Notes: generated from the letters alone by a model not told the origin. A stretch of DNA of 64,000 nt from Spirochaetota bacterium (GCA_031549085.1 JAVBQL010000001.1:119486-183485); one strand, 5' to 3'; shown: positions 1,001 through 40,735, counted from the stretch's first letter. Program-made: numbers and translations.

Positions 1001-1104
1001 ATAGAATCTCTCTCTATAAAAAACATATTTAAAAAGCTATTTTACGATTTTGTTGATTGGGGTGTCAACTTAATTATGAAAATTGGATTTTAAACAAATA
1101 TATA

Positions 1105-1435
1105 GTTTTTTATATAACTCTGTTGTTATAAACATACTATTAATATCAAATTAGCAGTACAGTTATCTATTTAGTTTACTTGTCAGTAAGAAGGGATATA
1201 ATTAGCGAATGGTACTTAAAAAAGAAAAAAAAAGAAAAAGTAAAAATGTATAGGGCGGGATTTTATCCCCCCTATACATTTTTATTCTCTCTCTTTCTCT
1301 TTTTTTGAGTAGTGTTCGCTCGTTATATATCTATTTAATGATAAGTAATACAAAGGCTACAATTTTAACAACCCATTAACACTTGGATAGGATTAATTAT
1401 AATATAGAGTAATACAAAACCTTTTATAGCTATGA
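1105..1435. repeat. Family A foldback element, copy A1 (core palindrome about 1195-1331)
   Basis: Arms GCGAATGGTACTTAAAAAAGAAA...GTAAAAATGTATAGG and CCTATACATTTTTATTCTCTCTCTTTCTC...GAGTAGTGTTCGC surround a GGGAT-TTT-ATCCC tip. Flanks CTATTAATAT and TTGGATAGGATT are shared with the other copies. Confidence 0.9.
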
Positions 1436-1440
1436 GTATG

Positions 1441-2670
1441 CTATTTCTTCTTTCCAGCGTCCCGTTTAATTCTATCTGCAAGAGCAAGCAGGTCATCACC
1501 TTTCAATGCCCCGCCAATAAGCTCTGGCAATCTATTTGGTGTACAGGCAAAGCATGGAATACCAAGATTGCTAATCTTTTTCCCCAGCCTCTCATCATAG
1601 GCAGGTGTACCTCCGTCAGCCAAGGCAAGAAGCACCAAGACCGTCACACCTGACTCCCTCATCTCATCAAGCTGTCTTAAGAGGCCAGCCTCAACACCAC
1701 CCTCATAGAGATCTGATATAAGTATAAACATTGTCTTCTTTGGAGTCTTCACAAACTCACGACAATATTTGACTGATTTATTTATATCAGTTCCGCCTCC
1801 AAGCTGGACACCAAAGAGGATATCAACAGGATCAGTCCCGCAGGTCTCCGTTAGATCAACAACCTCTGTATCAAAAGCGACTATCCTTGTATCGATTGCT
1901 GGCATAGAGGCAAAGATTGAGCCCATAATTGATGAGTAGATAATACTATCAGCCATAGAGCCGCTCTGATCCATGTCGAGAATAATAGTCCACTCATTTG
2001 ACACACGCTTTCTCTCAAAAAAATAGAATTTTTCTGGGATAATACGTTTTTTATCTCTATCATAATTCTTTAAGTTTTTTTGGATTGTCTTTTTCCAGTC
2101 AGTGTTTGGCAGTGATGGAATCGGAGAGTGCCTCTTTCTGTTTAGAGCCCCTGTTACAGCCCTCTTTATGTCGTTCTCCATATACTGCATAATCTCATCA
2201 ACCAACGCCTGCACAATCTGTCTGGCCTGCTCTTTTGATTTCTTTGGTATATGTCCCTGAAGCGAGATGATGGTACTTACCATATTTATATCGGGCTTAA
2301 CATTAGCCAGTGTCTCCGGTTCAAAGAGAAGCTGTTTAAGCCCCTTCTTCTCTATTGCATCACTTTGGATAACACTTACCACATCTGTTGGAAAGTAGGT
2401 TCTGATATCAGCAAGCCACTTGGCAATATTTGGATATGATGGACCAAGCCCCGCACTTCGCCCTTGAGACTTTCCATCATCCATTGTATTATCATAGATA
2501 GCCGCCAACGCTTCATCCATAATAGAATCACTCTCACCAAGCAGACTTGCTCCACCGCACATAGAAGAGAGCTTCTCCTCTGAAGATTTTCCAAGGATCA
2601 GTCGCCATCTTTTTAAGCGAATACTGTTATCCTGTGCTGCATTTTTCTCATCTAATCTATTATCACTCAT
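1441..2670 (-). CDS. VWA domain protein (YehP/CoxE-like)
   Basis: RLKRWRLILG N-terminus; MIDAS DMDQSGSM, GGGTDI and LISDLYEG; last gene of the AAA operon. Confidence 0.9.
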   Translation of the reverse strand: MSDNRLDEKNAAQDNSIRLKRWRLILGKSSEEKLSSMCGGASLLGESDSIMDEALAAIYDNTMDDGKSQGRSAGLGPSYPNIAKWLADIRTYFPTDVVSVIQSDAIEKKGLKQLLFEPETLANVKPDINMVSTIISLQGHIPKKSKEQARQIVQALVDEIMQYMENDIKRAVTGALNRKRHSPIPSLPNTDWKKTIQKNLKNYDRDKKRIIPEKFYFFERKRVSNEWTIILDMDQSGSMADSIIYSSIMGSIFASMPAIDTRIVAFDTEVVDLTETCGTDPVDILFGVQLGGGTDINKSVKYCREFVKTPKKTMFILISDLYEGGVEAGLLRQLDEMRESGVTVLVLLALADGGTPAYDERLGKKISNLGIPCFACTPNRLPELIGGALKGDDLLALADRIKRDAGKKK

Positions 2671-5033
2671 ATAGAATCTCCAAAATCAAAGTCATTCAAG
2701 TCATCAAGAACCGACTCCTCCTCTTTTGTAAGCTCCTCTTGTAGAAACTCTGCGGCACTGTTTGAGTCAACTCCCCATAACTCCGCAAGTATTTCACAGA
2801 TACCGCTCTTCTCTGATGGTTCGAATGATGAGAAGGCACGTCTTAAACTTACAAGGGCGTGAGAGAACTCCTCATCATCAAGTATATTAAGATAGCCATC
2901 AAGCTCCCTCCATAGTGCAGCCCGTGACAAGAGGACATATCTGTTTCTTTTGCTTAGTCCCTCAAACCATAACGCCCCAGCCTCTGGCGTGTTCCCTTTT
3001 GAGAGGTGTCTTGAGACCTCCGTTGAGAGATCATTCTCTGTAACTTGATTTCTCTCAAGCAAAATAGAGAATGCAAATCCACAGAGGAGCGGATTTTTCT
3101 CATCAGACTTTGCAAGCGTAGTTAGCTCCTTAAGCCATATCTCATCGTTTACAATATCATAGTTCTCCTGTGATATATGGTGCATATTTGCAATGTCAGA
3201 AGCCATCTCTTTCGCCGCACTCTCATTGCATGATGATGCGGAGAGAAGCAGAAGCGACGCCTTTAGAAAGAGCTCTTTAAGTATAGGGATAACAAGCTTT
3301 GTATCAAACTTGCGGATAGTTCCATACTGAACGAGAAATGAGATCTCCCTTGCAGCCTTTGCTGAGTCGGAAAAGCTCTCAGAATCGGAGGCTAAAGACT
3401 GAAGCTTCTTAACAGCATCATGGATAGAGTCTGGAAGCTTGCACTCGCAGGCCTTTCTAACAAGTGAAGCGACCTCTATTACATCGTTGCTCTTTTCAAG
3501 CCTCTCCTTAAGTGCATATGCAGAGGCAGCCTCAATTGAGTCCCCATATAGCACAGACTCAACAAGCTCAATCTCAACCTCTGGTGTCCAGCACAAAATC
3601 CAATTTTCTGCCCATGAAGCACCCTCTCTCTTTCCAGCAGGCTTACCAAAATTTATATTAAGAAGTGTAAGTCTATTTAAAAATATCGACCGATCCAAAT
3701 CAAGAAAGGCGGCCTCATCACTCTGCACCCTTCTATTTTCGCGAAGGTCAAGAACCAGTGTCTCGGCAACAGTAGTCTTATATTTTGTTAACTTAAGCCT
3801 CTTAAGCTGGTAGTTCATATCGTCCTGTATAGGTGTTTGGCTTACTCCATCAGGAAGCGAGCCTATCCTTGTGCCAACATCAAGAGAGGCAAAGGCTGTT
3901 GCTGTCTCTGTTATAACTCCATTTCCCATTGTTGCAACGGCAGCATCATGCAAGTCTGAAAGTGTAGGTAAAATTCCGCCATGCAGATATTGAAGAGAGT
4001 TTGCAAGGCGAACCGCCTCTATAACGGTTGCAGTAGAGGCATAGCCATTCTTCTTTCGCAAAAGCTGATTAAGTTCTGAGAGATACTTTGATGGCAATGT
4101 TGAAAGGTTATCCCTCTCCATTGCATTAAACATCATCTCATAGTAGTATGGTGCATGGTTTCCAGCCCCATAGCCCGAGTGGGTGGAGAGCTTGTAATAT
4201 GAGTAGGGCATCAGTGTCATCTTCGTCTCTGCCTTTGGAAGCCCTTTTATCTCGCCATCACTCATAGGCTCATTTTCCATTAAGCCCTTAACATGGTATG
4301 CCCCTGTTATCACAACGATCTTCTCCGGAGCAAACCCCTCCTTGATGGCTTCTTTTATCTGCCGTTTCATATAGGCCTCCCTTAAGGTATTTATAGAGGA
4401 GCTTAGCGAGTCTGCCTCTCTCTCCTCATCCTCTGTAAGAAGCCTCATCTCTTTTGAGTGTGTTGCAACGCCATTCATATAGACATCTGTTGTAAGGTTA
4501 TGTTCAAAGTGGCGCTCCCAATAGGTATCATAATCTGTCTCCCCGCCAATTTTAGCTATTTTTTCATAGAGGTTATTACTATACTTATAGTATTCAATTC
4601 GCTTTTCAATCTCTTCTGGGAGCTCCTCCGTTTCACTTTCAAGTGCCTCATTTTTCAAATTGTTATGTTTTACGCGCTCCCTCTCCTGAAATCTATAGAG
4701 CGGCGCCTTTACATATGAGGGAAGATCTATAAAACGACAAATCTTTTTCTTCTTATTTGCCCAAAGAAGCGCCTGATACTCAGGTGAGTATAGTGCAAGA
4801 GGGTAGACTATTGAGTAGGCTGGTATCTCTGTGGTATAGCACAACACTGCTATTGGAGGCTTAACCCCACTCTTTGCAATATCGTTTATAAGAGCTGTTG
4901 TGTCTGAAGGCATCTCAATCAAAACGCAATCAGGCTTCACACTCTCCAAAAACCTCTTTATATGCCAAGCCCCAGCGGCAGAGAGGTGCCTAATACCAAA
5001 TAGCTTTACACCCTCTTTTGTAGTCCACTCCAT
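2667..5033 (-). CDS. DUF5682 / YehM-like protein
   Basis: GIRHLS, VLIEMP, YSPEYQAL, VVITGAYH and YGAG motifs. Start set at ATG 5033 (MEWTTKEG); ATG 5084 is an alternative that overlaps the upstream gene. 4-nt overlap with the VWA gene. Confidence 0.85.
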   Translation of the reverse strand: MEWTTKEGVKLFGIRHLSAAGAWHIKRFLESVKPDCVLIEMPSDTTALINDIAKSGVKPPIAVLCYTTEIPAYSIVYPLALYSPEYQALLWANKKKKICRFIDLPSYVKAPLYRFQERERVKHNNLKNEALESETEELPEEIEKRIEYYKYSNNLYEKIAKIGGETDYDTYWERHFEHNLTTDVYMNGVATHSKEMRLLTEDEEREADSLSSSINTLREAYMKRQIKEAIKEGFAPEKIVVITGAYHVKGLMENEPMSDGEIKGLPKAETKMTLMPYSYYKLSTHSGYGAGNHAPYYYEMMFNAMERDNLSTLPSKYLSELNQLLRKKNGYASTATVIEAVRLANSLQYLHGGILPTLSDLHDAAVATMGNGVITETATAFASLDVGTRIGSLPDGVSQTPIQDDMNYQLKRLKLTKYKTTVAETLVLDLRENRRVQSDEAAFLDLDRSIFLNRLTLLNINFGKPAGKREGASWAENWILCWTPEVEIELVESVLYGDSIEAASAYALKERLEKSNDVIEVASLVRKACECKLPDSIHDAVKKLQSLASDSESFSDSAKAAREISFLVQYGTIRKFDTKLVIPILKELFLKASLLLLSASSCNESAAKEMASDIANMHHISQENYDIVNDEIWLKELTTLAKSDEKNPLLCGFAFSILLERNQVTENDLSTEVSRHLSKGNTPEAGALWFEGLSKRNRYVLLSRAALWRELDGYLNILDDEEFSHALVSLRRAFSSFEPSEKSGICEILAELWGVDSNSAAEFLQEELTKEEESVLDDLNDFDFGDSI

Positions 5034-5044
5034 AGAGGATGTCT

Positions 5045-6142
5045 CTAGACCATCTCCCTGCATGCTTTGTATAGCCCCTGCCATGACAATCCTCTCTTTT
5101 TCATAATATTTTCAAGATACTCTATCCAAGCAGCTCTATCTTTATCCTCATCTTTTATAACTGCCCCAAGTAGTCCCGCTGCAATATCATTTTCACTGAC
5201 ACTTCCGTCTCCAAAAGATGAGGAGAGTGCCATCGCATTTGTTAGCAGTGATATCGCCTCGGCAGTTGATACAACTCCGCTTGGACTCTTAATCTTCTGC
5301 TTTGCATCGAGTGTCTGTCCGCTTCTAAGCTCTCTAAATATTGTAACAACTCTTGTTATTGCATCATCATGCGGCATCTTTGATGTTATCTCATAGTTGG
5401 ATGAAATCTCAGCAACACGCTTCCTAACAATCTCAATTTCTGTCTCAATATTTGCAGGAGAGGGAAGAACAACGATATTAAACCGTCTCTTTAGGGCAGC
5501 TGACATATCATTTACACCCTTGTCCCTAGTGTTTGCTGTTGCAATTATAGAGAATCCCCTTTGGGCAGAGACCTCTCTTGAGAGCTCATTAACAGCGATT
5601 GTCTTCTCTGACAAAATTGATATCAAGGCATCCTGAACCTCAGACTGACACCTTGATATCTCCTCAATTCTAGCAATTCCGCCAGCCTCCATAGCAATCA
5701 TAACAGGGCTCTTTATCAGTGCCTTGTCAGATGGGCCCTCTGCCAAGAGGAGTGCATAGTTCCATGAGTAGCGGATCTGCTCCTCACTTGTCCCCGCAGT
5801 ACCCTGAACAACTTTGGTAGAGTCTCCATAGATTGCAGCAGAGAGATTTTCCGAAAGCCAAGATTTTGCTGTACCGGGCTCCCCAATAAGAAGAAGTGCT
5901 CTGTCTGTGAGGAGTGTCGCAATTGCAACCTCAACAAGTCTGTCATTACCTATATATTTTGGAATGATATCAACTCCGCCTGCCTTTCCGCCAACAATAA
6001 ATTTTCTAACCTGCATAGGAGACATCTGCCACCCTGTTGGAATATCCCCCTTATCCTCACTTTTTAGTGCTTCAATCTCATGAGCATAGAGCTTCTCTGC
6101 TGGAAGTCTTAGAATCTCACTCTTTGACTCTTTTTTAGCCAT
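5045..6142 (-). CDS. MoxR-type AAA+ ATPase, YehL-like
   Basis: Walker A GEPGTAKS, Walker B-like IEEISR, IIATANTRDKGVNDMSAALKRRF. Confidence 0.92.
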   Translation of the reverse strand: MAKKESKSEILRLPAEKLYAHEIEALKSEDKGDIPTGWQMSPMQVRKFIVGGKAGGVDIIPKYIGNDRLVEVAIATLLTDRALLLIGEPGTAKSWLSENLSAAIYGDSTKVVQGTAGTSEEQIRYSWNYALLLAEGPSDKALIKSPVMIAMEAGGIARIEEISRCQSEVQDALISILSEKTIAVNELSREVSAQRGFSIIATANTRDKGVNDMSAALKRRFNIVVLPSPANIETEIEIVRKRVAEISSNYEITSKMPHDDAITRVVTIFRELRSGQTLDAKQKIKSPSGVVSTAEAISLLTNAMALSSSFGDGSVSENDIAAGLLGAVIKDEDKDRAAWIEYLENIMKKRGLSWQGLYKACREMV

Positions 6143-6182
6143 TTTATCTCCTTAATTTGTTTTTATCCTTTATTCTACCATC

Positions 6183-6215
6183 ACCCCTACCCTCTTCCTT
6201 CAAAGGAAGAGGGAG
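6183..6215. repeat. Family C short hairpin
   Basis: CACCCCTA leader, then CCCTCTTCCTT-CA-AAGGAAGAGGG; TTCAAA at the tip as in other copies. Confidence 0.7.
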
Positions 6216-6330
6216 ATAATAAAAATTTTGATTAAATTAACATTAAATATATATAATGGTTTTACATAGGGTATTTAAGTCAATTTTTGTTAACAACACA
6301 AGCGATAAAAAAAATCTTCACTATTAAAAG

Positions 6331-6407
6331 GGGGCATACAACGTAAGATAAGTCGATTCTATTGTACAAGTAAGATAGAATCTTTGTTATCTTACGTTGT
6401 ATGCCCC
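6331..6407. repeat. Family B nested hairpin, copy B1
   Basis: Perfect 21-bp stem GGGGCATACAACGTAAGATAA/TTATCTTACGTTGTATGCCCC, internal loop GTC/TTTG, inner stem GATTCTAT/ATAGAATC. Confidence 0.85.
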
Positions 6408-6432
6408 TTATCGCCATTAAATCCTAAACAAC

Positions 6433-8118
6433 CTAATTTGTATTATATTTTATAATCTTATCAAGAGACTCCTTTGTTTTTTCATCACTTTCATCTTCAT
6501 ATGCTTTCTTAAAGGCATCCATAAGCTTCTCATTAAACTTGATCATCTCAAGATCTTCACTTGGATATCCTACCTTAAGAAATTGAACAAAATATTTTTC
6601 TGAATCTCTATGGCCAATTTTTAGAGCTGTCTCCAGCACCTCTGCATAAAATGGAGGCTTATATTTCTTTGAGACCTCTTTAAGAGAAAGCTCTAAGATC
6701 TTGTTCCATGTCTTCTCATCATCATCATAGACAAAACTGTATGCAACATTTGCATTTTTTTTGTCTGCAAAAAATTCACCCCATCTTCTATCCCACTTTT
6801 TTTCGCTATCAGGGATTCTCTTATCCCTATTATAATAGTAGCTATACATATCATAGGCCTGATAGAGAGCATTTGACAAATGGTAGTCCTGCTTAAAATT
6901 ACCGCTAAGCTCCTTGTAAATATCTTCAGGAGGCAAAATTCTTACTCCAACAAGAGCTTTATAGTGTATAAGATCACTATTATTCTTTGATATTTCATAG
7001 AGAGCTCTATCCTTTTTATCACTTTTGCTATCATAAAGAATACGAACAATGTCATAAAGATCAAGCGAATAGCTATAATCACTAAAGAACTTTTTATTGG
7101 ACATAATTTTAGTTATTAAATCAATGCCCTCATCTTCGTTGCGTGAAGCAGCAGCACTTAGAAGCACCTTAAGCTTGCTTGACTTCTTGTTTGGATCATC
7201 AAGAGCCTTGTTTATCTCCTCATAAACTTTCTTAATTATTCTTTCATCATCTGTCTCAACAAGAAATTCTGCAATATCGCCAAGGGTTGCTTTTTCCAAA
7301 GCAGCAAGAGCAATATCATTTCCTTTCTGAGATTTCATCTTGCCAAGAGCCGCAAAGGCAGCCTGTCTAATCTCTTTCTTTTTATCCTTGGCATATTGAA
7401 GAAGCAGATCTTCATACTTTGGATCCTCACCCAAGCTATATATAGCCTCCACAAGAACCAGTGGAGAGCCCTCCTCAAAGACCTTCATTGATAGGGGTAT
7501 TATATCTTTGCCCTTTAGAGAGTATAGAACCTTGAATAGTCTTGCATCTCTCTTTGTTCCGTTTATATTCAAAGCCTCCTCAATAAAAGGAATCATCTCC
7601 TTGCCAATTGCTGGGACTATTGTCTCTGCAACATAGTTTGAAATATATGAACGATTTTCAGTAATCGCCTCACAGTAGTATGGATACAATCTTGGGTCAT
7701 TATAGAGATTTCTCTTGAATAGATCCTCAATTTCGGTCTCATGAGTCTGTGTGCCCGATGTCAAAAGTTCAACAAGTCTATACAAGCTTGAGTATGGAAT
7801 CCTATTTACAGAGAGGGGTCTATCTTTGTACTCTAGCTCCTTAACCTCCTCATCAGCATCAGTTCGCCCCTGCGTGTAGATGAGAGAGTAGAGAAGCATC
7901 CCTGCCTCCATCAAGTTTTCTGGAGACTTTTTATCATCTCCCTCTGTAAGCTCTGTAAGTTTTGAGGCTAAAGAGTTAAAAACAGGTGCCTTTTCGCCAA
8001 GCTTCTTAAGCGGAGCTATATATTTAACAACCCTTGGATCTCCTTTTGAGAGAGAACTTCCAGCCACATACAATCTTTTAAGCTCTTCATTTAATTCATT
8101 TAAAATAGGTATACCCAT
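6433..8118 (-). CDS. HEAT-repeat domain protein
   Basis: Alpha-helical repeats such as VLVEAIYSLGE and IRQAAFAALGKM; lies between the SWIM and AAA genes. Confidence 0.8.
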   Translation of the reverse strand: MGIPILNELNEELKRLYVAGSSLSKGDPRVVKYIAPLKKLGEKAPVFNSLASKLTELTEGDDKKSPENLMEAGMLLYSLIYTQGRTDADEEVKELEYKDRPLSVNRIPYSSLYRLVELLTSGTQTHETEIEDLFKRNLYNDPRLYPYYCEAITENRSYISNYVAETIVPAIGKEMIPFIEEALNINGTKRDARLFKVLYSLKGKDIIPLSMKVFEEGSPLVLVEAIYSLGEDPKYEDLLLQYAKDKKKEIRQAAFAALGKMKSQKGNDIALAALEKATLGDIAEFLVETDDERIIKKVYEEINKALDDPNKKSSKLKVLLSAAASRNEDEGIDLITKIMSNKKFFSDYSYSLDLYDIVRILYDSKSDKKDRALYEISKNNSDLIHYKALVGVRILPPEDIYKELSGNFKQDYHLSNALYQAYDMYSYYYNRDKRIPDSEKKWDRRWGEFFADKKNANVAYSFVYDDDEKTWNKILELSLKEVSKKYKPPFYAEVLETALKIGHRDSEKYFVQFLKVGYPSEDLEMIKFNEKLMDAFKKAYEDESDEKTKESLDKIIKYNTN

Positions 8119-8134
8119 AATATTCTCTCCTTAA

Positions 8135-9592
8135 TTAATAGTTAAATCTTATAATTCCATCATCATTGACAAGAGCCATAGGGACAGCATAGAGTAGATC
8201 TGTCTTCATATCTTGAGTAAATCTGCAAATCATAGTCTGTCCAACAATCTGCTCTTTTGAGAGCTTTTTAATAAGAAAACCAAAGTTCTCAGGCTTCAAG
8301 ACAATCTGTGTCCCCTTCTCATCATAGATAACTAAAAAATCTTTACCTGATGCAGCTTTGCTTACAACAACAGCCGCAATTGGATTTTTGTCAGAGAGAG
8401 GATTCTTTATTTGTGCTTTGATTTTTTTGATAAGATCGGCAAAATCGGTTTTTCCAGCCTTTTTTGCTTTGGCTAAATCGCCCTTTGTTACATCTCTATG
8501 GTCAAACCTCTCCCATCTAACCCTTGGGTTTAGCTCGCCCGGGTATATAGAGAGTTCGCTTGTTGTAAGAAGTGAGAAGAAGCTATCCTCCTGCTTTATA
8601 TACTTCAAAGCATTATATGGGCGGAAATTTTTTGTAAGATAGATGTTTCCGCTCTCAAGCTCTATCCAGCAACCCTCATCAACATACTGCTTTTTTGCAC
8701 TATCATCATAGGAGTCAAAACTGACCTGAAGCAGTTCAGCATTCTCTTTAAATAGCCCCCTCTCTTTAAGTTCAGAGAGTTTCCACGCATAGCCAATCTG
8801 CTCCTCTATTGCGGAGTGGAGCATTGCATCAAGAGAGGTGGTTGTCATCTCAGGGAAAGCAAGATAATCATTTTTCTTTGCCTCAAGATATGCTTTGCTC
8901 TTTTTAAGAAGAGCATATATATAGTTTACACTATCAATTGCAGAACCATAGTGCTGCTCTTTGCTTGCCTCTGTTATTTCAGAAAAGAGCTCATAAAATG
9001 AGGCCTCAATTCCATCAATATAGTAGCTTCCAAGCCCCTTTACCTGCTCTCTATATATCTTCTCATTTTTTTTATCAAAACTATGGAGACCTGCTGATAT
9101 TATATTATGAAGAATCTTTTCGGAAAGCTCAATTCCCTCAATTTGTGCGCTGCACTTTTTTGCGGCAGCTGTTGCCTTTGCTTTTGTCATAACTGAAGAT
9201 TTTGCTTCGCTGCCTTCACTATCATCGCCGCTTTTTTCGGCCCTATCCTTTTTCTTCTCTATCTTGCCCCTTTTTGATACTATATCTTCAGGCACCTCTT
9301 TTTTCTTGAACTCCTTTTTTTGAAGTTTACAGAATAGAAGACCAACAGCATGTTTACATGGAAGCTGTCTGCTTGGACAGTTACATCTTGCAATAGGTTT
9401 TTCGTTATCGATAAAGTCGACAGAGCAGACATATGGATCTTTTCCGCTTCCTGCACAGCTTCCAAAGAGCAGTGTCTCATCATCACTTATAAAGAGCTCT
9501 TTAAAGCTTCCTTTTGCAGCGAGGCTCTTGCCGTTTGAGACTGTTGATGGATTTCCAGTAAAACTAATGATGAAATCTTCACTTATATTCAT
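8135..9592 (-). CDS. SWIM zinc-finger protein (YehQ-like)
   Basis: CNCPSRQLPCKH matches the SWIM CxC...CxH motif; preceded by GSCAGSGKDPY; first gene of the operon. Confidence 0.9.
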   Translation of the reverse strand: MNISEDFIISFTGNPSTVSNGKSLAAKGSFKELFISDDETLLFGSCAGSGKDPYVCSVDFIDNEKPIARCNCPSRQLPCKHAVGLLFCKLQKKEFKKKEVPEDIVSKRGKIEKKKDRAEKSGDDSEGSEAKSSVMTKAKATAAAKKCSAQIEGIELSEKILHNIISAGLHSFDKKNEKIYREQVKGLGSYYIDGIEASFYELFSEITEASKEQHYGSAIDSVNYIYALLKKSKAYLEAKKNDYLAFPEMTTTSLDAMLHSAIEEQIGYAWKLSELKERGLFKENAELLQVSFDSYDDSAKKQYVDEGCWIELESGNIYLTKNFRPYNALKYIKQEDSFFSLLTTSELSIYPGELNPRVRWERFDHRDVTKGDLAKAKKAGKTDFADLIKKIKAQIKNPLSDKNPIAAVVVSKAASGKDFLVIYDEKGTQIVLKPENFGFLIKKLSKEQIVGQTMICRFTQDMKTDLLYAVPMALVNDDGIIRFNY

Positions 9593-9744
9593 GAATAGAG
9601 CTCCTTAAAAAGAAGAATATTAAAGAGATATTGTACGATTTTGTCAATTATGATGTCAATTAAATTTGGAAAAAAAGCTGATATTGGGAAAATATATCTA
9701 TTTTTGGTTATTTTTAGTAACATTTTGTCATTATATATGTATAT

Positions 9745-10075
9745 GGTTTTTTGTATAGTTCTGTTATCACAAATATACTATTAATATCAAACTAGCAGTA
9801 CAATTATCTGTCTAATTTACTTGTCAGTATGAAGATATAAAATGAGTAAATGCTACTCAAAAAAAAGAGAAAGAGAGAGAATAATTTTATATAGGTTGGG
9901 GTTATACCCCACCTATATAAAATTACTTTTTTTCTTTTTTCTTTCTTTTAAGTAACATTCGCTCGTTGTATATCCACTTAATGATATGGAAACCAGAAAA
10001 TAGGTACAAATCGCTTATTAAAGACTGGATAGGATTGTTTATAGTATAAAAGCTAAATAAAACCTTTTATGGTTA
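9745..10075. repeat. Family A foldback element, copy A2 (core about 9834-9974)
   Basis: Same flanks and orientation as A1 (ATACTATTAATATCAAA...TGGATAGGATT); tip GGGG-TTATA-CCCC. Confidence 0.9.
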
Positions 10076-10178
10076 TAAATTTACTATAATAATATAAAAA
10101 ATATAAAATTAAAAAAAGCTTTACAAAAAATTTTTAATAAATTAGCCTGCTTAAACAAACAATAAAGGACAGGCAAAT

Positions 10179-11483
10179 ATGGACGACTACAAAAAGCTAA
10201 TCAAACTCTCGCTCCCAGTAATAGTTACCTACCTCTCATTTCACCTAATTGGTATAACCGATATGATTATGGTTGGCAGGCTTGGAAAAGAGGCAATCGC
10301 AAGCGTTGGACTTGCAATCACTGTTTGGATAGTTATCTTTTTTCCGCTTGAGTTCTTTTTCGAAACCGTTGTAATTCTCCTCTCCCGCGCCTTTGGAAAG
10401 GGGGATAAAAAACTATTTAAGAGCTACTACTATACAGAGATAATAATTGCATTGGTACTTGGATTTATTGCTCTCTTTTTTTACTTTCCACTAAAGATTA
10501 TTCTTGGATTTTTAACAAAAGATCCAGTGATATTAAAAATGGCAACACTATACCTCCTAACCGCAATGTTAAGATCTATTCCATTCACACTTGGACAAGT
10601 TTTTTCAAGAACCTTTATGGCCATACAGAGACCAAAATATATCACATACATATCAATCGCAACTACACTATTAAATATATTTCTAAACTATATCTTGATA
10701 TTTGGTAAACTTGGCTTTCCAAAACTTGGTGTCGTTGGTGCGGGAATTGCAAGCCTCATTGCAAGCATTTTTCAAGCAGGGATGCTATACTTATTCCTAA
10801 GAGTAAAGGTACGCCCCTTTATTAGTGATGATAAATTCACCCTCTCAAAACCGATGGTCAAAGAGATATTCAAGCTTGGAACACCATTGGCAGAGCTGAG
10901 CTTTTTAGAATCAATCTCTTGGGTAATATTTATAAGATTTATATCTCAATTGGGGGTGGCTCCATATGCCTCTCATGAGATTGCAATGAAGATCAAAGAT
11001 ATTGGTTTTCTGATGGGCTATGCTGTTGCGACAGTCTGCGGCTCCCTCGTTGGTGCATCGATGGGACAGAGTGATGAGAGCAGTGCAAGGAGGCTGACAA
11101 ACAAGTCGGTAATATTGGCAACTATATTTATGGTCGCCTTTGGTGTGCTATTTTTTATATTTCCAGATATCTTTACCTCCATGTTCACAGACGACAAAGA
11201 GGTAATTTTGATAAGCAGAAATATACTTAGAGTTATGGCTCTCTACCAAATTGCTGATGCTATATATCTTGTTTTTAGAAGCAGCCTCAATGCGATGAAG
11301 GATACAAAATTTGTTAGAAATATAAGCCTTATTGGGCTTTGGTGTCTGATGATTCCAGCAACATTTCTATTTGTGAATGTTTTTAAGATTGGTGTTATTG
11401 GTGCATGGATTGGACTAACTTTTCATGTTGCCTTTTGTGCGATCCTTTTTTGGCAAAGGTTTACAAAGAAGAGCTGGTCATAA
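10179..11483 (+). CDS. MATE family efflux transporter
   Basis: About 12 hydrophobic segments; TDMIMVGRLGKEAIASVG, FGKLGFPKLGVVGAGIAS and GVIGAWIG. Confidence 0.93.
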   Translation: MDDYKKLIKLSLPVIVTYLSFHLIGITDMIMVGRLGKEAIASVGLAITVWIVIFFPLEFFFETVVILLSRAFGKGDKKLFKSYYYTEIIIALVLGFIALFFYFPLKIILGFLTKDPVILKMATLYLLTAMLRSIPFTLGQVFSRTFMAIQRPKYITYISIATTLLNIFLNYILIFGKLGFPKLGVVGAGIASLIASIFQAGMLYLFLRVKVRPFISDDKFTLSKPMVKEIFKLGTPLAELSFLESISWVIFIRFISQLGVAPYASHEIAMKIKDIGFLMGYAVATVCGSLVGASMGQSDESSARRLTNKSVILATIFMVAFGVLFFIFPDIFTSMFTDDKEVILISRNILRVMALYQIADAIYLVFRSSLNAMKDTKFVRNISLIGLWCLMIPATFLFVNVFKIGVIGAWIGLTFHVAFCAILFWQRFTKKSWS

Positions 11484-11519
11484 TTTTTTAAGCAGCATTC
11501 ATCTATTTTACTCACAGTG

Positions 11520-11830
11520 ATATAAGGACTTGTACAGCTTTTATATTATTAATAATCCTATCCAATATAAAATGAGTTATCAAGTCTGTTCTCTAGGTTA
11601 CTGGTCAGTAGTAGCAGATATAATGAGTGAATGGTACTCAAAAAAAAGAGAAAGAAAAAAGAAAAAGTAAAAATGTATAGGGGGGATAAAATCCCACCCT
11701 ATACATTTTTATCCTCTCTCTTTCTCTTTTTTTTGAGCAGCGTTTTCTCGTTGTATATCTTCGTACTGACTAGGAAACTAGAAAGTAAAATGTACTAATA
11801 GTTTAATATTAATAGTATATTTATAACAAG
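11520..11830. repeat. Family A foldback element, copy A3 (reverse orientation; core about 11617-11759)
   Basis: Left flank AATCCTATCCAA and right flank ATATTAATAGTATAT are the reverse complements of the A1 flanks; tip GGGAT-AAA-ATCCC. Confidence 0.9.
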
Positions 11831-11884
11831 TAAGCTTTTTGTGTAGCTTCATATTAATGATAATTAAATACAAGTAATCAAAAT

Positions 11885-32811: not shown

Positions 32812-32871
32812 TTGATTATGTAGCAATTGCTCCCTACCTAAACATTCGTTAAACTTAATTTTAGCAACTAC

Positions 32872-33160
32872 CCTATCAATATTTAATTGGTTGTGCTGTT
32901 TCATCTTTAGCTTACTTATAAGTACAAGAATATATAATGAGAAAACGCTACTTAAAAGAGAAAGAGAGAGAATTAAAATATATAGCGGGGTGTTACCTTA
33001 AGCCTATATATTTTAACTTTTTTTTCTTTCTTTTTTAAGTAGCGTTTTCTCGTTATATATGTTGCTAATGACCAGTAACTCAGAAAATAAGTTTAATAAC
33101 TCATTCAAGATTGGATAGGATTAATTATATAATAGAGATGTATGAAAAAGCATTATCTGT
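32872..33160. repeat. Family A foldback element, copy A4 (core about 32929-33060)
   Basis: GAGAAAACGCTACTTAAAA.../...TTTTAAGTAGCGTTTTCTC arms; right flank TTGGATAGGATTAATT. Confidence 0.9.
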
Positions 33161-36044: not shown

Positions 36045-36430
36045 GTTGGCATACATACAGAAAATGCTTTTTCATACATCTTTATTATATCAATAATCTC
36101 ATCCAAGCTTTAATAAGTAGTTAGGTATCGTTTTTGTGTTACTTGTCATTACGTAGAGCTATAACGAGAGAACGCTACTCAAAAAAGAGAAAGAAGAGAG
36201 AATAATTTTGTATAGGTGGGGGGGGTAATCAAAAAAAGAGCCTAATTTTAAAAATATGAAAATAAAACAAAAAGGACGTGGCACGCAAAAAAAGCCTATA
36301 CAAAATTACTTTTCTTTTTTTTCTCTCTTTTTTAGGTACCATTCGCTCATTATATCTGTTCGTGCTGATAAGTAAACTAGGTATAAGGTTTTAATAGCTT
36401 GTTTAATATTAATAATACACTCATAATAAC
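36045..36430. repeat. Family A foldback element, copy A5 (reverse orientation, enlarged loop of about 78 nt)
   Basis: AACGCTACTCAAAAAAGAGAAAG...TATAGG and CCTATACAAAATTAC...GGTACCATTCGCTC arms; flanks ATCTCATCCAA and ATATTAATAA. Confidence 0.88.
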
Positions 36431-36568
36431 TAAGCTACCCTAATAATTAAATAGTATAAAATTGCTAAGCTAAAAGAGAGAAAAATAAAGAGTCAAAAAG
36501 TTAAATAGTAAAATGGCCAATTCCGATAAAACCACTATATACAACTAAAGGGTCTCTGCAAAAATAAA

Positions 36569-40424: not shown

Positions 40425-40735
40425 TGTAAAATATTAATACCAAGCCGGATGTAGAGCTTTATACTTAGTTTGCTAGTCAGCACGAAAATATACAACGAGA
40501 AAACATCACTCAAAAAAAGAGAAAGAGAGAGAATAAAAATATATATGAGCAGGAGCTTCGCTCCTCTCATATATATTTTTACTTTTTCTTTTTTCTTTCT
40601 TTTTTGAGTAGCGTTTTCTCGTTACATCTGTTACTAATGACAAGGAAGCCAGAAAGTAAGTTTAATATAGCTCATTATAACTTGGATAAGTCTATTAGAA
40701 TAATAGAGCTATTTGAAAAGCGGTGTCAGTATGAA
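40425..40735. repeat. Family A foldback element, copy A6 (core about 40487-40628)
   Basis: AACGAGAAAACATCACTCAAAAAAAGAGAAAGAGAGAGAATAAAAATATATATGAG and CTCATATATATTTTTAC...GAGTAGCGTTTTCTCGTT arms; tip GGAGC-TTC-GCTCC. Confidence 0.9.

Follow-up and report, generated by a model that had tools for sequence, protein, structure and literature searches.

A palindromic repeat family in a Spirochaetota draft genome with flanks, arms and tips of unlinked polarity

Results

The window, a stretch of 64,000 nucleotides from a Spirochaetota bacterium, contains six copies of a repeat that we call family A, each built with two types of arm, as the initial annotation had reported. The element is an imperfect palindrome of ~330 bp, non-coding, AT-rich and multi-copy, and as a whole it forms an inverted repeat. 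nhmmer placed ~96 family A loci, 51 of them full length, in the 2.68-Mb draft genome, a metagenome-derived assembly that is 87.8% complete and in which several contig ends fall within family A copies. All 96 loci are intergenic, and none of 58 typed copies has its centre within an ORF of at least 90 aa. In a comparison confined to occupied sites, conservation wanes gradually past ~±170-215 nt from the dyad centre, and the element has no sharp boundary. Small ORFs lying between paired elements upstream of the window had no Pfam match.

Every copy is layered. From the outside inwards, a half-element consists of a flank unit, ACTY, a 23-nt purine tract, a variable inner stem and a GC-rich tip, so ordered that two inward-facing flank half-units of ~150 bp each enclose a core of purine tract, hairpin and pyrimidine tract. 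The purine tract exists in two discrete forms, A and B, which lie six A<->G transitions apart; it is of low complexity, and its length varies by slippage. The GC-rich tip stem is 8-10 bp long, and the tip carries a one-base pyrimidine bulge. One flank half (Q/S) is marked by ACTATTAATAT plus CAGTAC-GAAAATAT and the other (P/T) by CCTATCCAAG plus CATTAA-GTAGATAT, and each copy was oriented by these markers. Half-elements were analysed separately, because an iterated nhmmer model took in both strands, which gave the whole element a symmetric appearance. Flank polarity was taken from motif-based calls, a flank score dominated by one subfamily being uninformative for the main subfamily. The copies in the window are as follows.

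1097..1441: A1, full element (nhmmer locus C30:120582-120926; dyad centre 1262/1263), with Q/S as its left flank half and P/T as its right, + strand reading A-tip-B'
1214..1240, + strand: A1 left arm, ACTT and the type A purine tract AAAAAAGAAAAAAAAAGAAAAAG
1241..1284: A1 inner stem TAAAAATGTATAGGG / CCCTATACATTTTTA and tip GGGCGGGATTTTATCCCCCC, the left side of which has a bulged C
1285..1310, + strand: A1 right arm, type B' pyrimidine tract TTCTCTCTCTTTCTCTTTTTTT and GAGT
9740..10076: A2, full element (centre 9903/9904), Q/S left and P/T right like A1, but B-tip-A'
9855..9881, + strand: A2 left arm, ACTC and the type B purine tract AAAAAAAAGAGAAAGAGAGAGAA
9926..9953, + strand: A2 right arm, type A' pyrimidine tract CTTTTTTTCTTTTTTCTTTCTTTT and AAGT
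11510..11848: A3, full element (centre 11689/11690), flanks and loop the reverse complements of those of A1, + strand arm order A...B' like A1
11636..11667, + strand: A3 left arm, ACTC and a hybrid purine tract of 28 nt, B-like on the outside (AAAAAAAAGAGAAAG) and A-like on the inside (AAAAAAGAAAAAG)
11712..11738, + strand: A3 right arm, type B' pyrimidine tract and GAGC
32835..33154: A4, full element, B purine tract at 32954-32972, A' pyrimidine tract at 33017-33036, tip of GGCTTAAGG type
36064..36452: A5, with a 69-nt asymmetric tip insert at 36226-36294
36181-36202 and 36309-36333: A5 arms, B tract on the P/T side and A' tract on the Q/S side, respectively
40432..40735: A6, full element, B tract at 40512-40533, A' tract at 40582-40605, tip of GAGCAGGAGC type with a bulged C

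A1 is predicted to fold as DNA at -39 kcal/mol (z = -9.0). When every copy is turned so that its Q/S half comes first, two of them (A1 and A5) read A-tip-B' and the other four (A2, A3, A4 and A6) B-tip-A', as first described. The central comparison of the initial annotation likewise holds: along the + strand the arms of A1 and A3 come in the same order, although loops and outer flanks of the two copies are reverse-complementary (two loop-pattern matches against 0.00 expected), and the arms alone have changed sides. The exchanged piece is shorter than the ~70 nt first proposed, amounting to ~45 nt per arm in A1 and A3, where it comprises s2, ACTY and the purine tract, and to ~27 nt (ACTY and the purine tract) across the family. 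What did not extend to the family is the idea that loop and flanks stay co-oriented, since bulge side against flank polarity stands at 9:8 among copies of the main subfamily and at 5:11 among those of the C/D subfamily.

Almost every element is heterotypic. One A arm is paired with one B arm in 43 of 47 typed copies, the remainder being two AA and two BB (one-sided binomial ~1e-9; the copies are related by descent, and such p-values overstate their independence), and an independent classifier gave 44/4/3. The diagnostic columns that separate A from B (239-282) are inherited together, with |r| of 0.8-1.0, but against the flank block (88-230) and the tip block (302-306) |r| is near 0. The flank is itself coherent, Q going with S and P with T (odds ratio 10, p = 7e-4). 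Arm and flank polarity combine at 7:6 and 5:10, and at 9:4 in the C/D subfamily, and arm polarity against bulge side stands at 23:14; family-wide, A/B polarity is unlinked to the polarity of flank or tip.

The points at which linkage is lost are sharply placed. The two arms of a copy are nearly identical in two stretches only, the ACTY+A-run at the outer edge and a 15-20 bp inner stem, and linkage breaks exactly at these peaks of arm-to-arm identity. Dividing the copies into flank, arm and loop and mapping breakpoints, as had been suggested at the outset, placed them in the ACTY+A-run and the inner stem. Although its sequence varies, the inner stem pairs perfectly (0 of ~50 copies heterotypic), with an arm-to-arm identity of 0.98 against 0.73 expected; columns only 4-8 nt away are heterotypic in 75-90% of copies. 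Close relatives agree in polarity in 45 of 48 informative pairs, so that flips are discrete, occasional events. Such inheritance speaks for sporadic events in the past and against rapid switching.

Pairwise comparison supplied examples of four kinds of event. The whole core has flipped between C30_117324 and C30_117961, in which a core of ~80 nt is 100% identical when reversed while the flanks, ~85% alike, align directly and the junctions lie within the A-run. The tip alone is turned in C21_1210: its 69-nt insert is inverted relative to arms and flanks, as judged against four of the six other insert copies, and a leftover asymmetric tip stem (GGTTGGG) moves together with the insert. Arms alone are swapped in two pairs, A1/A3 and C20_279170/C20_319678, where the arms align directly and flanks and loop are flipped; the two pairs differ in inner stem, and the loops of both are of GGGTGGGATT type. 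Arms have been homogenised in C16_742 (B/B') and C19_6425 (A/A'), whose flanks and tip are ~99% identical.

Parts of the element also occur outside complete copies. Flank half-units are found solo, adjoining ordinary genes and ending at ACTY + A-run, where linkage breaks; core-like matches have one flank or none (C17:101898, C29:18855). A 69-nt unit sits inside the tip of seven copies in either orientation, a 24-nt unit lies inside the B arm of five copies and elsewhere, and tip types are common to subfamilies with unrelated flanks.

Judged by its sequence, family A is a new, lineage-specific repeat family in a host whose genome carries spirochaete FlaA genes. A BLAST search of 40 relatives with the family A core returned low-complexity purine matches only. 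Exact-pattern scans gave three matches in 185,579 species genomes and five in the JGI metagenomes, none of which fits the family A HMM and all of which are thus chance, the pattern being strict enough that diverged relatives could escape it. In exact-protein look-ups for other strains, the MatE and VWA proteins led to sample SRR23967709 alone and GTP cyclohydrolase I had no match. Rfam had no match at the gathering score across the whole window; at E <= 1 it returned generic long-hairpin (miRNA precursor) matches, far under threshold.

Discussion

On balance, family A is probably a selfish or neutral mosaic repeat, like a MITE, BIME or Correia element, whose layers have been turned by homology-guided symmetric exchange. 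Its founder would have been asymmetric at three nested layers: the flanks (Q/S versus P/T), the arms (A versus B) and the tip, the last through its pyrimidine bulge and an asymmetric loop. An exchange guided by the ACTY+A-run or by the inner stem would reverse everything inside the exchange point, so that the former would flip arms plus tip and the latter the tip alone. Two nested flips would leave the arms swapped with loop and flanks unchanged, as would a single conversion in flipped register by a donor with its tip already inverted. Arms-only swaps are most simply explained in one of these two ways, and two such pairs are somewhat more than expected if two independent events were always required. 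Because symmetric exchange retains one A and one B arm in each element, heterotypy would persist, and occasional one-sided template switching would give rise to the A/A' and B/B' copies.

Exchange could follow either of two routes. It may be an inversion within one element, through recombination of its own arms or template switching during replication, or it may be gene conversion by another copy aligned in flipped register, an alignment that a near-palindrome allows. We infer both the enzymology and the division between these routes, and individual pairs point in different directions. The opposite-direction homogenisation of C16_742 and C19_6425 directly suggests template switching within the element, in keeping with reports that switching between the arms of an inverted repeat homogenises arms and inverts spacers and loops (PMC8604942, PMC8794818). 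A core that is 100% identical inside flanks only 85% alike favours conversion, and the event separating C30_117324 from C30_117961 looks like transfer between copies, not within one; tip types held in common by subfamilies with unrelated flanks would likewise need between-copy transfer. The original proposal of repeated strand exchange within the element is thus borne out insofar as whole arm blocks were exchanged, more than once, and insofar as the homogenised pair is concerned, but not for the C30 pair, and the copies bear no specific sign of the folded single-stranded DNA intermediate that it invoked.

Some of the same observations would arise if family A were a mosaic assembled like nested Russian dolls, with flank half-unit, core and tip separately mobile and each inserted centrally in the next in either orientation, so that the layer polarities would be independent from insertion onward. 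We regard this as unlikely, although several observations fit it. Solo half-units end at the very point where linkage breaks, the 69-nt and 24-nt units are found in tips, in B arms and elsewhere, an identical core sits within diverged flanks, tip types cross subfamilies, and core-like matches exist with one flank or none. Against it, a free core or tip with target-site duplications was not found, and the tip stem that travels with the insert of C21_1210 fits inversion at the inner stem better than fresh insertion. Hybrid arms and homogenisation in opposite directions are products of exchange, not of insertion. Nor was a transposase candidate found: a search for the Y1 transposase (PF01797), which found matches in six of 14 control genomes, gave none at E <= 0.01 in the window's own 87.8%-complete assembly, and, PF01797 being the one family searched for, no transposase was recognised in passing among the genes beside solo half-units.

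A perfectly paired inner stem so close to mostly heterotypic columns is a sharp contrast that calls for explanation. It may reflect selection on pairing and perhaps on the mismatches themselves, a selection that symmetric exchange does not require. An improbable extension is that the six A.C/G.T columns and the tip pyrimidine bulge form a selected strand code marking the active strand of the palindrome, in which case the mismatch pattern, present in ~90% of copies, would be read by a hairpin-reading enzyme or an RNA-level process. Extrahelical bases mark the active strand in integron attC sites and IS608 ends. If this were true, the turning of layers would amount to regulated, heritable reprogramming of each copy.

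Quite improbable, too, is programmed inversion, by which a site-specific recombinase would flip core or tip as a phase-variable switch acting as promoter, terminator or determinant of RNA stability. A similar role has been proposed for Correia elements (PMC10969869), and the element has features that would suit it. The S-type flank half contains TTTACT-N16-TATAAT, where the T-type half usually has TATAAC, and the B->A' strand has the better U-tract, its RNA fold being the modestly more stable one in 32 of the 43 copies compared (average difference ~3.8 kcal/mol, p = 0.002). However, arm polarity is unrelated to the direction of neighbouring genes (15 matching and 11 opposed in tandem contexts) and to local GC skew as a measure of replication direction (Fisher p = 1.0). 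The TATAAT half is co-directional with the downstream gene in 16 cases and opposed in 22, and promoter-consensus matches in family A are no commoner than in shuffled sequence; a simple terminator scan called no terminator. Close copies inherit their polarity stably, moreover, and two assemblers recovered one configuration per locus. No function was tied to family A and no link to the direction of transcription or replication was found, and we infer that polarity is without function.

It is very improbable that a short-read assembler produced the pattern by mis-joining near-identical arms within or between copies, a concern that the initial annotation had raised and that an 88%-complete metagenome draft, with contigs ending in family A copies and long exact words among C/D copies, makes reasonable. 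All layer boundaries lie within ~100 nt, so that single reads span each of them. For A1, A2, A4, A6 and most copies of the main subfamily, no 41-mer within ±110 nt of the centre is repeated elsewhere in the assembly. A3 shares four 41-mers, and at k=55 no shared word is left in A3 or in most copies. Two Logan contigs (SRR23967709), made by a different assembler though probably from the same reads as the draft and so not fully independent of it, match the junctions of A1, A2 and A3 base for base. One (L020) joins the P/T flank of A1 to the B arm; the other (L011) is identical through the B arm, tip, A' arm and P/T flank of A2 and confirms the flank, A arm and tip of A3.

That independent point and homopolymer mutations made A-like and B-like arms separately in each copy, a second concern raised at the outset, is scarcely credible even though each of the six A/B differences is a purine transition and the tract is of low complexity and prone to slippage, because the diagnostic columns are inherited as a block, exactly one A and one B arm recur in nearly all typed copies, one swap would take ~12 coordinated transitions, and the reversed core is identical throughout.

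If homology-guided exchange is the right reading, family A would be a natural archive of palindrome-centred exchange within one genome. Work on template switching and recombination at inverted repeats usually takes one engineered locus at a time; here tip inversion, core inversion, arm swapping and homogenisation have breakpoints that can be mapped in 10-20 bp stretches of identity, and ~96 copies with three independent polarity markers could yield relative rates and tract lengths and reveal whether conversion between palindromic repeats runs in both registers. Practical weight is limited, since the organism has not been cultured and no function came to light. The family nevertheless enlarges the sparsely described repeat content of spirochaetes, and it warns annotators that the 'orientation' of a palindromic repeat is not one single property.

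Small, non-coding, multi-copy and mostly intergenic, family A is in these respects like a MITE, and its behaviour recalls several known systems. Among these are the Correia elements of Neisseria (CREE/nemis), which are also multi-copy, non-coding, intergenic inverted repeats with alternative end variants (symmetric and asymmetric copies), a directional core, promoter-like end hexamers and long RNA hairpins, and for which inversion in situ has been reported (PMC2649163; Elbeyioglu et al. 2017, as cited in PMC10969869). At ~330 bp family A is twice as long as CREE (104-157 bp), without the sharply defined 26-bp terminal repeat or a demonstrated TA duplication. Its asymmetry is nested in three layers where CREE has ends plus core, and its arms are nearly always heterotypic, whereas in CREE the ends occur in every combination. 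CREE are further defined by a conserved core containing an IHF site; the sequences are unrelated and the host is a spirochaete, not Neisseria, so the likeness is one of behaviour only. With the BIME, REP (PU) and REPIN elements of proteobacteria, family A shares a mosaic build, in which a few short modules alternate in orientation and occupy intergenic gaps, a high copy number per genome, and imperfect palindromes whose mismatches or bulges are conserved. It does not belong to the REP/REPIN-RAYT group, with its short GC-rich palindromes of about 20-40 nt: it is AT-rich and ~10x longer than the 35-40-nt REP, has purine/pyrimidine arms and no conserved GTAG head, and the assembly yielded no RAYT/Y1 transposase.

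A mechanistic parallel comes from the template-switch mutations of inverted repeats, whose described outcomes match those in family A: homogenised arms, multi-base compensatory change, inverted loops or spacers, and breakpoints where the arms are identical over a short distance (PMC8604942, PMC8794818). The published cases are single events in genes or RNA stems, whereas family A shows three nested depths over ~96 copies and part of its signal resembles conversion between copies. The ITRs of parvoviruses and the telomeres of poxviruses have flip/flop hairpin termini that are inverted in each round of replication by hairpin transfer or resolution. Like family A, these are imperfect palindromes whose asymmetric interior can face either way with respect to the outer sequence, giving two reverse-complement forms, but they are the ends of linear replicons, whereas family A is internal to the chromosome, its polarity is heritable and more than one of its layers flips.

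The TMECO, BoxC and PIT repeats resemble family A in having purine/pyrimidine blocks in intergenic repeats. In inverted pairs of E. coli TMECO, type A always occurs with type B (PMC4666352), which parallels the heterotypic arms described here. The triplex motif of that study has three consecutive blocks (pyrimidine-purine-purine or its mirror) with short loops between them (PMC4666352), and a triplex reading of family A was rejected because it has two blocks only; with one purine and one pyrimidine arm, a hairpin or cruciform is possible and that triplex is not. Beyond its purine and pyrimidine tracts, the sequence of family A (ACTY, s2) is mixed.

Genomic context and anatomy of family A

The window (C30:119486-183485, C30 being contig JAVBQL010000001.1) belongs to a draft genome of 2.68 Mb in 33 contigs, with 32% G+C and an estimated completeness of 87.8%. 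FlaA flagellar-sheath genes, a hallmark of spirochaetes, number three in this genome and are absent from 14/14 control genomes. The genes around the first three copies of family A, a palindromic repeat of ~330 bp, are ordinary bacterial ones (a MoxR-AAA/DUF5682/VWA/SWIM operon, a MatE pump and an amidase-AspRS fusion), and the copies occupy the gaps between them. The five-gene minus-strand operon at window 1441-9592 (VWA CoxE-like, DUF5682, MoxR-type AAA, HEAT-repeat and SWIM zinc-finger proteins) is flanked by A1 and A2, both with the same flank orientation.

Family A copies in the window
Window 1097-1441, copy A1
Window 9740-10076, copy A2
Window 11510-11848, copy A3
Window 32835-33154, copy A4
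Window 36064-36452, copy A5
Window 40432-40735, copy A6

BLAST and nhmmer searches with A1 as query located ~96 loci in the genome. Among these are 51 full-length copies with a clear dyad centre and seven copies with a 69-nt asymmetric tip insert; the remaining loci are half-units or fragments, and all typed copies are intergenic. No Rfam family matched, a search of 40 relatives found no comparable counterpart, and strict pattern scans of 185,579 species genomes and JGI metagenomes returned chance matches only, so that within reach of these searches family A is lineage-specific. The repeat limits assembly of the genome. Six contig ends lie within copies (C4:23492-23715, C26:12293-12471, C27:1-178, C29:1-191, C31:1-216 and C32:22604-22798), mostly of a highly similar subfamily, C/D, which is located on small contigs of slightly higher G+C; this part may represent a replicon of its own or a region dense in repeats.

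Splitting every copy at its dyad gave 102 halves, which we aligned together. From the outside to the centre, a half consists of an outer flank carrying ACTATTAATAT (Q) or CCTATCCAAG (P); a segment s1, either TACTTGTCAGTAC-GAAAATAT-ATAA (S) or ..CATTAA-GTAGATAT.. (T); a segment s2, CGAGCGAATGCT; ACTT or ACTC (ACTY); a 23-nt purine tract; an inner stem of ~15 nt that starts with TA and varies between copies; and a GC-rich tip. Two forms of the purine tract occur, A (AAAAGAAAGAAAAAAAGAAAAAG) and B (AAAAAAAAGAGAAAGAGAGAGAA), which differ in the half alignment at six positions, all A/G. With A' and B' as the pyrimidine complements, the hairpin of a B...A' strand has four G.T(U) wobbles and two A.C mismatches, and that of the opposite strand the reverse. 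In the C/D subfamily, a strongly divergent C-type half (..CAGCAAGTTGCACTTAA..) lies opposite a D half.

One side of the tip stem nearly always has an additional pyrimidine (T, sometimes C), whatever the tip sequence type: GGCTGGGG against GGCGGGG, GGGTGGGAT against GGGGGGAT, GAGCAGGAGC against GAGAGGAGC (examples at window 1253-1272, 9895-9912 and 11680-11699). A recurring tip variant has TTAAGG in place of TGGGG (GGCTTAAGGTA). In the copy at C5:101398-101611, the A and B' arms are linked by TAAATATATATTA alone, without the GC-rich tip; the tip was either deleted or never present.

The inner stem alone behaves as a co-evolving hairpin would: where its columns are polymorphic, the arms of one copy always agree (0/~50 heterotypic), and arm-to-arm identity reaches 0.98, where column composition across the family would predict 0.73. 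Outside it, the two arms of a copy are as dissimilar as random halves of the family, and at some columns they systematically differ.

Layers of the element change sides independently

The initial annotation held that arms had been swapped between copies while loop and outer flanks stayed co-oriented. The arm swap is borne out in the window and extends to the whole family: once every copy is turned so that its Q/S half comes first, the order is A-tip-B' in A1 and A5 and B-tip-A' in the other four (A2, A3, A4 and A6). In alignments of A1 with A3 in both orientations, outer flanks and asymmetric loop (GGGYGGGATTTTATCCCCCC) match if A3 is flipped, and the arms and s2 match if it is not; the exchanged segment is ~45 nt per side rather than ~70 nt. 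Co-orientation of loop and flank applies to A1-A3 and to most copies of that loop type, but is not a family-wide rule.

An assembly artefact could imitate such mosaics, and A3 does share four 41-mers with other sites. None of these recurs at k=55, where most copies are without recurrence, and the 41-mers around A1, A2, A4 and A6 are not repeated elsewhere in the assembly. All layer boundaries fall within read length. Contigs built by a different assembler (Logan, SRR23967709), probably from the same reads, are identical across the A1 junction of P/T flank and B arm, over the whole B-tip-A'-flank stretch of A2 and over the flank-A-tip stretch of A3. On present evidence an artefact is therefore unlikely.

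Across the family, 43 of 47 typed copies have one A and one B arm, with two AA and two BB (44/4/3 with a second classifier), a departure from the 50% expectation that we calculate at ~1e-9, a value that overstates independence as copies share descent. The flank layers are mainly heterotypic as well (P/Q 14/16, S/T 16/21). Scoring, for each column, which arm carries which allele revealed three linkage blocks: flank (columns 88-230), purine tract (234-282; internal |r| 0.8-1.0), and tip bulge with loop (302-306). At the element level Q pairs with S and P with T (odds ratio 10, p = 7e-4, subject to the same shared descent), and between blocks linkage is essentially nil. Flank against arm polarity gives counts of 7:6 and 5:10, with 9:4 for the C/D subfamily; arm polarity and bulge side stand at 23:14 by hand tally. 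Flank polarity and bulge side, also tallied by hand, stand at 9:8 in the main subfamily and 5:11 in C/D, hence the failure of loop-flank co-orientation as a rule. The breakpoints of linkage are the ACTY + A-run and the inner stem, the only stretches of near-identity between a copy's two arms.

Close relatives largely retain their phase: 45/48 pairs callable by alignment for flank and arm orientation are concordant, and most of the seven tip-insert copies have the same combination of phases. Flips are thus discrete and heritable, and the missing family-wide linkage reflects a build-up of occasional flips, not constant switching.

Individual exchange events

A short way upstream of the window, two copies separated by 637 bp, C30_117324 and C30_117961 (named by contig and position), differ by a core flip. 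Their left inner flanks and right flanks align directly at roughly 85%, and the ~80-nt core is 100% identical solely with one copy reversed, with junctions within ACTY|AAAAAA on both sides. The core being more alike than the flanks indicates recent copying between the two in flipped register. Other discordant pairs are C30_110578/111218 and A1/117324. In C21_1210 the tip alone is flipped: judged against 4/6 other insert copies, the 69-nt insert and the leftover asymmetric tip stem are inverted relative to arms and flanks, bordered by the 14-15 bp inner-stem repeat. The arms-only swap of A1/A3 has a second case, with a different inner stem, in C20_279170/319678. Finally, C16_742 and C19_6425 have ~99% identical flanks and a 100% identical tip, one being B/B' and the other A/A'; the A/A' copy retains an outer B-like remnant that marks the tract end. 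One-sided template switching in opposite directions would produce this pattern.

In the simplest account, the two stretches of arm identity would guide exchange, and all sequence inside the exchange point would be reversed, which would retain one A and one B per copy and randomise phase between layers. This could occur within one element, by recombination or replication template switching between its arms, or by gene conversion from another copy paired in flipped register, as a near-palindrome would allow. An arms-only swap would take a pair of nested events or else a single flipped conversion, the donor in that case having its tip inverted beforehand; copies of either phase class are present as potential donors. 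Among the published outcomes of template switching at inverted repeats are homogenised arms, inverted spacers or loops and compensatory changes of several bases (PMC8604942, PMC8794818). The initial interpretation is partly supported, as to exchange of arm blocks; nothing here bears on the folded single-stranded DNA intermediate that it invoked.

The spacers at C30:110905-111111 and 117435-117641, 2-9 kb upstream of the window, are mutually inverted and 93% identical over 207 nt, each enclosed by a family A pair ~640 bp apart. Their small ORFs (89 and 72 aa) have no Pfam match. The arrangement resembles two oppositely oriented copies of a composite [A]-spacer-[A] unit.

Function and classification

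No function was found from gene direction, GC skew, motif side or RNA stability. Arm polarity is unrelated to the direction of neighbouring genes (15:11), to GC skew, or to the side with a TTTACT-N16-TATAAT motif (16:22, counted for the motif half against the downstream gene). The B->A' strand folds modestly more stably as RNA in 32/43 copies, by ~3.8 kcal/mol. The motif, sigma-70-like and inward-facing, lies in the S-type flank half (1175-1202 in A1, 9816-9843 in A2, and the family consensus); at the matching place in the element's T-type half, the sequence is usually TATAAC. This T/C column is heterotypic in 30/41 copies and linked to the flank block, not the arms. An always-paired inner stem beside always-mismatched arm columns, together with the conserved bulge, leaves room for selection on structure. 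On these same features rests an improbable reading of the fixed mismatches and bulge as a selected strand code.

Among known repeats, TMECO/PIT triplex repeats are rejected since family A has two blocks only, and REP/RAYT elements since no Y1 transposase was found in the assembly and size and composition do not fit. Correia elements have variant ends and a directional core (PMC2649163; PMC10969869), and their inversion has been reported (Elbeyioglu 2017, as cited in PMC10969869); we reject them too as the identity of family A. It behaves like a MITE/BIME-type mosaic repeat. Family A is a new palindromic repeat, lineage-specific and unusual in its flip-flop architecture of three layers, and its value is as a natural record of palindrome-centred exchange.

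Inserted modules and solo half-units

Solo half-units terminate at ACTY + A-run, and with the small modules found in arms and tips they support a modular picture of family A. In seven copies (window 36226-36294 in A5; C20:53973, 63619, 217453, 219084 and 329529; C21:1341), the 69-nt insert (TAATCAAAAAAAGAGCC...GGACGTGGCACGCAAAAAAAG) takes the place of half of the tip stem. The final ~25 nt of the insert (CAAAAAGGACGTGGCACGCAAAAAAA) are a small CGTG-N-CACG hairpin flanked by A-runs, a unit present at at least 15 further genome sites, sometimes immediately past a family A pyrimidine arm. Five C/D-subfamily copies have a 24-nt insertion (TAAGCAGAGCTTGTTACTTCGTAAT) within the purine arm of the C-type half (C26:11622-11661, C6:91156-91195, C6:118643-118682, C19:184-222 and C4:22831-22869), with near-identical copies at other loci on C5, C20, C9 and C2. 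A duplicated short reading frame on C5 is immediately preceded by solo flank half-units (C5:95640-95767 and 96056-96244). Their truncated purine tract, AAAAAAAGAGGGGAG, resembles a ribosome-binding site, with an ATG 8 nt further on, and the half-unit might derive from, or act as, a promoter and leader.
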